19,950 nucleotides of DNA. It comes from a virus. Lineage: Duplodnaviria > Heunggongvirae > Uroviricota > Caudoviricetes. The DNA lies in the IMG/VR virus record IMGVR_UViG_2778261164_000003. One strand, given 5' to 3'. The notes below the pieces were generated by a model that saw only the letters and a list, made by a program, of their open reading frames with translations, was not told the origin of the DNA and searched no databases. This document shows, piece after piece, positions 18,404 to 19,177 of the stretch (position 1 is its first letter; each line of letters begins with the position of its first letter). The translations under genes were made by a program, and so were the position numbers.

Positions 18404-19177
18404 ATGGATATTACTGAGTTTCCTTCTGGAGTAATTGAACACCTTGGCTGGTATGTATACCGATTGATTGATCCGAGGGACGGAAGCACCTTCTATGTAG
18501 GGAAAGGCAAAGGTAACCGCGTATTTGCCCATATGCGCGGTGAAGTGGCAGCGACTGATGATGACGAGTTACTGAGCAACAAGCTAAAGCAAATTAGAGA
18601 AATAAGGTTAGCAGGACTTGAGGTTATCCATGTCATCCATCGACACGGAATGACTGATGAAAAGACGGCGTACGAAGTTGAAGCAGCACTTATTGATGCC
18701 TACCCTGGGTTAACGAATATCATGAATGGTGCTGGCAGCAATGAATTCGGCGCCGCGCATGTCAAAGAGTTGATAGCAACATATCAACCCGAAACCATAA
18801 CATTTCATCATAAAGCATTAATGATTTCCGTTAACAGAAGTGCAAAGGATTCAGAGCTTTATGATGCGGTTCGATTTAGCTGGCGCATTAATGTCTCTCG
18901 CGCCAGCCAAGCAGAAGTCATTCTTGCTACTGTAAGGGGGATCGTTCGAGGGGTTTTCATTGCTGATAAATGGCTCAAATCAACACGTGAAAATTTCCCT
19001 ACGATGAAATACTGGGACGAGGATCCGGACTTTGAGGCAACACAAAGTTCTCGCTATGGTTTTGAAGGTCGAGAAGCCCCACCTGAAATAGCAAATCTTT
19101 ATCTTGGAAAAAAAATACCAGATGAATTAAGAAAAAAAGGAGCTATGTCCCCGGTCCGTTACTCACCTAATTTTTGA
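18404..19177 (+). CDS. GIY-YIG nuclease-domain protein, 257 aa, with uncharacterised C-terminal domain
   Basis: [29 protein letters not shown] matches the UvrC-type GIY-YIG pattern (GVYRM...IYVGKAK...R). Track start 18353 is TTG; first ATG at 18404. Confidence 0.7.

Follow-up and report, generated by a model that had tools for sequence, protein, structure and literature searches.

The whole stretch of DNA analysed here (the window; 19,950 nucleotides of the Caudoviricetes record IMGVR_UViG_2778261164_000003) carries a solitary gene for a GIY-YIG protein near its right end, and the question raised by this locus is what such a nuclease does there on its own. The original prediction, made from the letters of the sequence, described a GIY-YIG signature at the N-terminus of a 257-aa protein, left its C-terminal domain unrecognised and proposed a candidate single-gene defence factor. 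We find that the gene is already known, with a published function, mechanism and structure, and that the window holds a near-identical copy of it. With a probability of about 0.95 it is CMoRE / PD-T4-3, a type IV restriction enzyme that acts on 5hmC/5ghmC DNA, its mechanism being carried over by identity to the studied proteins. The features discussed below are listed in Table 1.

Table 1. Features of the window and related loci, with positions, strand and basis of each call. Positions without an accession or locus name are those of the window.
Feature	Position	Strand	Basis or remark
CMoRE / PD-T4-3 coding sequence (assigned by identity)	18404..19177	+	ATG start, 257 aa plus stop
N-terminal GIY-YIG domain	18404..18748	+	Pfam PF22945 (aa 28-110); residue roles from PMC12923530
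C-terminal domain, predicted modification-sensing	18764..19174	+	~aa 121-257, boundary approximate; no Pfam/NCBIfam match
5' region travelling with the gene, presumed native promoter	18221..18403	+	~95% conserved with the O157:H7 PA20 locus
Upstream repeat copy, left cassette joint	18109..18215	+	dinI-like gene 3' untranslated region plus terminator hairpin (~18175-18220)
Decayed 3' remnant of dinI-like gene	18027..18110	+	Alignment of its translation with the intact DinI-like protein of L003
Third hairpin-core copy, right cassette joint	19196..19240		Between the convergent CMoRE and pinE stop codons
pinE, serine invertase of e14-like prophage	19238..19792	-	Pfam Resolvase + HTH_7; 91.8% nucleotide identity to K-12 e14 pinE
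HTH (XRE-type) protein, CapH-like	16799-17176	+	PADLOC capH 6e-11
ImmA/IrrE metallopeptidase, CapP-like	17180-17713	+	PADLOC capP 5e-15
253-aa Bro-N protein, Ant-type anti-repressor-like	15731-16492	-	Between the first two repeat copies
570-aa ABC/SMC-type ATPase (AAA_15, AAA_21)	13235-15261, including 94-aa ORF	-	Pfam
274-aa ORF beside P4-like integrase	10598-11422	-	No match in Pfam, PADLOC or PHROGs
P4-like satellite prophage backbone	3981-12678	-	Pfam of its ORFs
Drt3b and Drt3a, adjacent reverse transcriptases	300-3586	-	Drt3b 672 aa, E = 8e-204; Drt3a 425 aa, E = 1.4e-129
Further repeat loci	L003 3790-4145; L002 21246-21388		
CMoRE homologue, Serratia phage Moabite	NC_048792.1 6406-7161		Jumbo phage
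CMoRE homologue, Pseudomonas phage OBP	NC_016571.1 158703-159449		Jumbo phage
CMoRE homologue, Klebsiella phage N1M2			Jumbo phage

Domain libraries recognised the N-terminal part of the protein. Pfam family PF22945 (LEM-3_GIY-YIG) matched residues 28-110 (E = 2.1e-14, 54.2 bits with a cut-off of 27), in agreement with the predicted signature, and the generic Pfam GIY-YIG model PF01541 remained below threshold on the 257-aa protein. No Pfam or NCBIfam family matched the C-terminal ~140 aa, and an NCBIfam search with the whole protein returned nothing; as far as domain libraries go, calling this half unrecognised had been fair. Full-length searches identified the gene. The PADLOC profile PDLC04031 for PD-T4-3 aligned protein residues 1-256 with profile positions 1-255 of 256 (E = 2.4e-140), and phrog_5356, a PHROGs family listed as 'unknown function', gave a full-length match (E = 2e-143). 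The PDB sequence search returned two proteins only, 9U75/9U8D (E = 3.7e-172) and 9U7U/9U7Z (E = 1.1e-150), both deposited under the title 'GIY-YIG domain-containing protein'. The E values for PADLOC PD-T4-3 and for 9U75 indicate that the match is far above chance.

The two deposited proteins are the CMoRE enzymes of E. coli O157:H7 (9U75/9U8D) and of APEC O1 (9U7U/9U7Z) (Liu et al., Nat Commun 2026, PMC12923530). The window protein is 98.4% identical to the former, with substitutions at four of the 257 positions (T51A, E55D, Q169K and N197H, reading from window to O157:H7), and 85.2% identical to the latter (38 differing positions); neither alignment contains a gap. The proposed single-gene defence factor thus corresponds to published PD-T4-3, both by the full-length PADLOC match and by its identity to O157:H7 CMoRE. 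The same gene, with the same boundaries, was found in E. coli strain H7, where RefSeq names the identical product (WP_000355484.1) 'LEM-3-like GIY-YIG domain-containing protein'.

PD-T4-3 was first recovered from E. coli ECOR68 by functional selection (Vassallo et al. 2022); the main text of that paper mentions only 'a GIY-YIG nuclease', and the name PD-T4-3 is given in figures. Its deletion from a native host, the clinical isolate NILS69, rendered the strain sensitive to two Tevenvirinae phages. Plating of T2, T4 and T6 was reduced ~10^5-fold by the genes from O157:H7, APEC O1 and Klebsiella (PMC12923530). The O157:H7 gene defended on its own from its native promoter, and the APEC O1 gene gave weak defence from its own promoter and strong defence with a T7 promoter (PMC12923530). 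The purified enzyme bound and cut 5hmC or glucosyl-5hmC DNA but not C or 5mC DNA, with a cleavage pattern of CN11/N9G and 2-nt 3' overhangs; accordingly, T4(hmC) remained sensitive while T4(C) escaped (PMC12923530). A Capnocytophaga homologue (48% identity) degrades T4 DNA, and at high concentration Mu DNA too, but not T4-GT7.

The structural work gave each half of the protein a role. The nearest structural relative of the N-terminal GIY-YIG domain is UvrC, and the C-terminal domain is a distinct fold for which Liu et al. found no sequence or structural homologues (PMC12923530). In crystals the C-terminal domain bound 5hm-dCTP, with Y127 touching, through its main-chain oxygen, the 5-hydroxyl of 5hmC (PMC12923530). 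Active-site mutants lost activity, and the enzyme was found to be autoinhibited by an acidic loop of 15 residues that lies between alpha2 and alpha3 (PMC12923530). CMoRE is a tetramer, and the V92S/L96S mutant, in which oligomerisation is abolished, was severely impaired in defence (PMC12923530).

The window protein has the same length and architecture as the O157:H7 and APEC O1 enzymes and shares with them the GIYxY-YIG motif, the acidic loop, the sensing domain and the single-gene organisation. Every residue named by Liu et al. (PMC12923530) was present, namely Y17, Y19 and Y31 of the GIYxY-YIG motif, R39, R80, V92, L96 and Y127. The N-terminal domain is the 9U75 sequence save at positions 51 and 55, and the acidic run D52-D53-D54-E55 (DDDE) reads DDDD in O157:H7 and DDDE in APEC O1. 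Residues 121-257 aligned with 9U75 without gaps, with two substitutions (Q169K and N197H) and with Y127 conserved; from this alignment we predict that the protein contains a CMoRE-type sensing fold.

Two of the four substitutions, E55 and N197, are residues of the active APEC O1 enzyme, and the other two, T51 and Q169, are private to the window allele when it is compared with both crystallised proteins. It is very unlikely that these private residues leave the allele inactive or shifted in specificity. T51 is next to the autoinhibitory loop, Q169 belongs to the sensing domain, and alleles do differ in promoter strength, that of APEC O1 being weak; however, the ORF is intact, all named functional residues are conserved, and position 51, where the window protein has T, is occupied by A in the O157:H7 enzyme and by V in that of APEC O1, both strong defenders (APEC O1 with the T7 promoter only). 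Furthermore, activity is retained in homologues down to 48% identity. Because all of the named residues are present and position 51 varies within the crystallised pair, the published mechanism can be assigned to the window protein with high confidence on sequence grounds.

To place the gene among E. coli genomes, we used the 1038-bp segment 18200-19237, which was present in 853 of 5426 complete genomes, nearly always as a single chromosomal copy. The gene was annotated throughout the carriers as 'LEM-3-like GIY-YIG domain-containing protein'. Across the 853 genomes the conserved unit is a ~1-kb cassette holding the gene alone, as befits a single-component system. Included in this unit is the 5' region that presumably contains the native promoter. 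A consensus promoter scan of the + strand upstream of the gene found none, and a TTGTGA-17 nt-TAATAT arrangement at ~18343-18371 was read by eye, its hexamers falling below the threshold of the scan. Since the scan was empty, the expectation that the gene is expressed derives from the ~95% conservation of its 5' region with the O157:H7 locus.

Regulation from further upstream was also considered. The HTH (XRE-type) and ImmA/IrrE genes, which match the PADLOC profiles of capH (6e-11) and capP (5e-15), known as regulators of defence systems, lie ~690 bp upstream on the same strand and could be envisaged to control CMoRE expression on damage or infection, as one larger regulated system. There is little chance that they do so, given that the pair lies beside the cassette in only 31 of the ~820 cassette-carrying genomes, that a terminator-like hairpin (17997-18015), the dead dinI remnant and a second hairpin intervene, and that CMoRE defends alone from its native promoter (PMC12923530). 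The HTH/ImmA pair is not a conserved part of the CMoRE system. Two tiny ORFs, like the hairpin at 17997-18015, lie on the 3' side of the pair.

If the window enzyme works as its characterised relatives do, its C-terminal domain would bind 5hmC or glucosyl-hydroxymethylcytosine in the DNA of an incoming T-even phage, and a dimer within the tetramer would read two modified cytosines separated by ~21 bp (CN11/N9G). A double-strand cut leaving 2-nt 3' overhangs would then be made by the N-terminal GIY-YIG domain, with Y17, Y19, Y31, the catalytic Arg and Glu and either Mg2+ or Mn2+. The acidic loop (DDDE, 52-55) is expected to cover the active site and to repel ordinary host DNA, and tightly bound modified DNA alone would displace it. 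Because host DNA is without hmC, neither a methyltransferase nor an immunity partner would be needed.

Defence of this kind would be direct, not abortive. An abortive-infection or toxin-like nuclease that acts indiscriminately on host and phage DNA once triggered is a common mode among single-gene nuclease defences, and a 4A mutant of the CMoRE acidic loop does cut ordinary DNA and become toxic (PMC12923530). It is nevertheless an extremely unlikely description of this enzyme. Wild-type CMoRE cells grow normally at MOI > 1, from which the defence was judged to be direct, and sequencing after infection showed T4 DNA to be depleted and host DNA to be preserved (PMC12923530). Neither 5hmC DNA nor 5hm-dCTP supplied in trans switched on the cleavage of ordinary DNA (PMC12923530), and the DDDE loop is intact in the window protein.

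The original prediction had further stated that no repair, restriction-modification or homing partner is adjacent, and this was borne out: Pfam annotation of the neighbouring genes revealed neither a methyltransferase or repair gene nor an intron or intein. A Pfam scan of 19 ORFs, among them every ORF of at least 80 aa in the cargo region 12700-19950, likewise showed no methyltransferase. The missing partner gene is what one would expect, because type IV enzymes need no methyltransferase, and the window gene has the make-up of that type, a nuclease and a modification reader without a cognate methyltransferase.

A housekeeping repair nuclease and a homing endonuclease had been named at the outset as identities that would speak against a defence role; both were looked at, and neither was found. 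In the case of a UvrC/Cho repair nuclease, the GIY-YIG match stands alone, Pfam finding none of the other UvrC domains (UvrB-interacting, RNase H-like endonuclease, (HhH)2) and NCBIfam being empty, and the gene, far from belonging to the core genome, is accessory and prophage-borne, with just 16% of complete E. coli genomes carrying it. The GIY-YIG domain of UvrC/Cho does resemble that of CMoRE in its conserved catalytic Arg and Glu (PMC12923530), but CMoRE has an extra tyrosine (Y19) and the 15-residue acidic insertion. An I-TevI-type homing endonuclease would join its GIY-YIG domain to a module binding a specific DNA sequence, would sit in or next to an intron or a conserved phage gene and would have a defined homing site; here Pfam shows no DNA-binding module, and the gene is not set in an intron or intein. 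That it is a free-standing homing endonuclease of the GIY-YIG type, spreading by cutting cognate alleles without the gene, can practically be dismissed, for although the gene occupies a discrete cassette with sharp joints and its full-length homologues in the jumbo phages OBP and N1M2 are annotated 'putative homing nuclease', those labels are automatic names only, neither an intron or intein nor a homing-endonuclease DNA-binding module recognisable by Pfam is present, and the 98.4%-identical protein leaves host DNA intact and cuts according to base modification, at the loose CN11/N9G pattern and with no long specific target.

Jumbo phages (genomes of ~250-285 kb), of which Table 1 lists examples, encode full-length CMoRE homologues with 38-45% identity and 97-99% coverage, which bear the label 'endonuclease' or 'putative homing nuclease'. 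The phages may carry them as type IV enzymes directed against competing phages with modified DNA.

Among characterised enzymes with the specificity of CMoRE, the PvuRts1I family is the comparator discussed by Liu et al. (PMC12923530). Its members are likewise specific for 5hmC/5ghmC and cleave between two symmetrically placed modified cytosines, at a fixed distance, but their fold is unrelated, with neither a GIY-YIG domain nor the CMoRE sensing fold. No sequence relationship between CMoRE and PvuRts1I was detected, the PDB search having returned the CMoRE entries alone.

The gene occupies a defined position within an e14-like prophage. In strains H7 and O157:H7 PA20, as in the window, it lies tail-to-tail with pinE, and past pinE both strains continue with an invertible tail-fibre segment and then the baseplate, tail and head genes of the prophage. 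Strain H7 carries the cassette at 100% identity, shares the block from ~13135 to the end of the window and has the same gene content and order from the ABC-type ATPase gene onwards. The left neighbours differ in PA20, where an AraC-family gene and an integrase are found, whereas the window has the dinI remnant, the HTH/ImmA pair, the Bro-N gene and the ABC-type ATPase gene. A joint query of cassette and pinE was covered to at least 80% in 567 genomes, approximately two thirds of the carriers. The invertase gene, annotated as pinE in loci L001 and L004, is a conserved hotspot marker and stands outside the defence mechanism. Upstream of it, at ~19850-19876 (region 19829-19950), TTTTCATAAACGTTGGTTTGGGAGAA was read by eye as resembling a crossover site for a Pin/Gin/Hin-type invertible tail-fibre segment. 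The window would then end just inside this putative segment; the region is 91.8% identical to K-12 e14.

In K-12 e14 the gene beside the orthologous pinE is mcrA. With mcrA in K-12 and CMoRE here, the pinE slot carries different, non-homologous type IV enzymes according to the strain. McrA (EcoKMcrA, e14) resembles CMoRE in standing alone as a type IV enzyme, in being encoded as cargo next to pinE where an e14-type prophage ends, and in consisting of a modification reader fused to a nuclease without a methyltransferase. It differs in its nuclease, which is of the HNH type and not homologous, and in its orientation, mcrA being co-directional with pinE whereas the CMoRE gene is convergent with it. 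Furthermore, McrA is named methyl-directed, whereas CMoRE neither binds nor cuts 5mC DNA.

About one third of the carriers have the cassette away from pinE. In strain SA186 (NZ_CP022730.1 1239231-1243087) it was found in a lambdoid prophage that is inserted at ssrA, at the tail-fibre end. There CMoRE directly adjoins a type II restriction-modification pair, an endonuclease with a cytosine methyltransferase, and together they form a small prophage-borne restriction cluster.

The statement that dispersed repeats bound the gene was likewise correct, with copies at 18109-18215 and 19196-19240. A 107-nt direct repeat occurs at 15434-15540 and at 18109-18215 (87% identity), and its ~45-nt hairpin core is found a third time just past the CMoRE stop codon. 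Because the copy at 18109-18215 follows the dinI-like fragment, the repeat is that gene's 3' untranslated region together with its terminator hairpin. Across the whole window no Rfam family reached its gathering threshold, so the repeat is no described RNA element. On the + strand the third copy (19196-19240) folds with an energy of -16.3 kcal/mol (z = -3.8), on the - strand with one of -22.5 kcal/mol (z = -5.1), and this hairpin is probably a bidirectional terminator for the two convergent genes. The resulting layout is [ABC-ATPase + 94-aa ORF] - repeat - [Bro-N, HTH, ImmA, dinI remnant] - repeat - [CMoRE] - hairpin - pinE.

Comparison with other genomes located the joints of the cassette. 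Its homology begins at window position 18109, 18194, 18207 or 18210 and stops at 19209, 19237 or 19238, and each of these breakpoints falls within a repeat copy or at its edge. In strain QDFD216, where CMoRE is absent, the pinE stop codon is immediately adjacent to the repeat. The breakpoint positions suggest that the repeats are shared prophage backbone, at which cargo swaps by recombination. The gene lies, with its own 5' region, in a ~1-kb cassette that has a copy of the prophage terminator hairpin on either side, and the hairpins coincide with the joints where prophages differ in cargo. The repeat is not universal in the pinE slot, since a search of K-12 e14 for the dinI-type repeat found none. 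Another ~930 or so E. coli genomes, without CMoRE, have it next to intact DinI-like genes, near pin-type recombinases of other prophages. An example of the gene order at these sites is dinI-like, ynaM, ydfK, recombinase, and PGAP sometimes calls fragments of the repeat 'capsid protein'.

A dedicated exchange of cassettes at the Pin-proximal prophage end, in place of plain homologous recombination between related prophages, is very unlikely. If it did exist, the terminator hairpin would be a recombination site and the region a small integron-like array of defence cargo.

The remainder of the window holds further cargo. A P4-like satellite lies immediately next to the e14-like prophage, at its cargo end, an arrangement shared with strain QDFD216, and a tRNA scan found no gene at the junction that would explain it. 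The satellite encodes an Ogr/Delta zinc finger protein, Psu, a Psu-related 247-aa protein, an 890-aa primase-helicase (Zn-ribbon, Toprim, DUF927), a DUF5375 protein, an AlpA-like HTH protein and a tyrosine integrase. Drt3a and Drt3b, encoded by genes that are named drt3a and drt3b by RefSeq in other strains, form a complete DRT type 3 defence system with a GC content of 0.26-0.32, carried as cargo at the satellite end. The 274-aa ORF beside the integrase, with a GC content of ~0.33 versus 0.55-0.6 in the satellite core, may represent a second, uncharacterised gene that the satellite carries as cargo.

In the prophage cargo region that also holds CMoRE, the 570-aa ATPase is a candidate for an uncharacterised defence gene. 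Its matches to NsnB, AriA, HEC-01A, Old and GajA were partial and confined to the ATPase domain, and it has no close solved structure. No family was found for its C-terminal ~250 aa, and the 94-aa ORF just upstream on the same strand had no matches.

For the family, the window gene adds one more allele of a characterised enzyme found in about one sixth of complete E. coli genomes. The finding is of value for annotation, as the gene is still 'LEM-3-like GIY-YIG' in RefSeq and of unknown function in PHROGs despite its published function, mechanism and structure. Its context is of modest interest in its own right: an e14-type pinE slot in which the type IV enzyme varies, and a cassette whose joints lie inside a repeated terminator hairpin.
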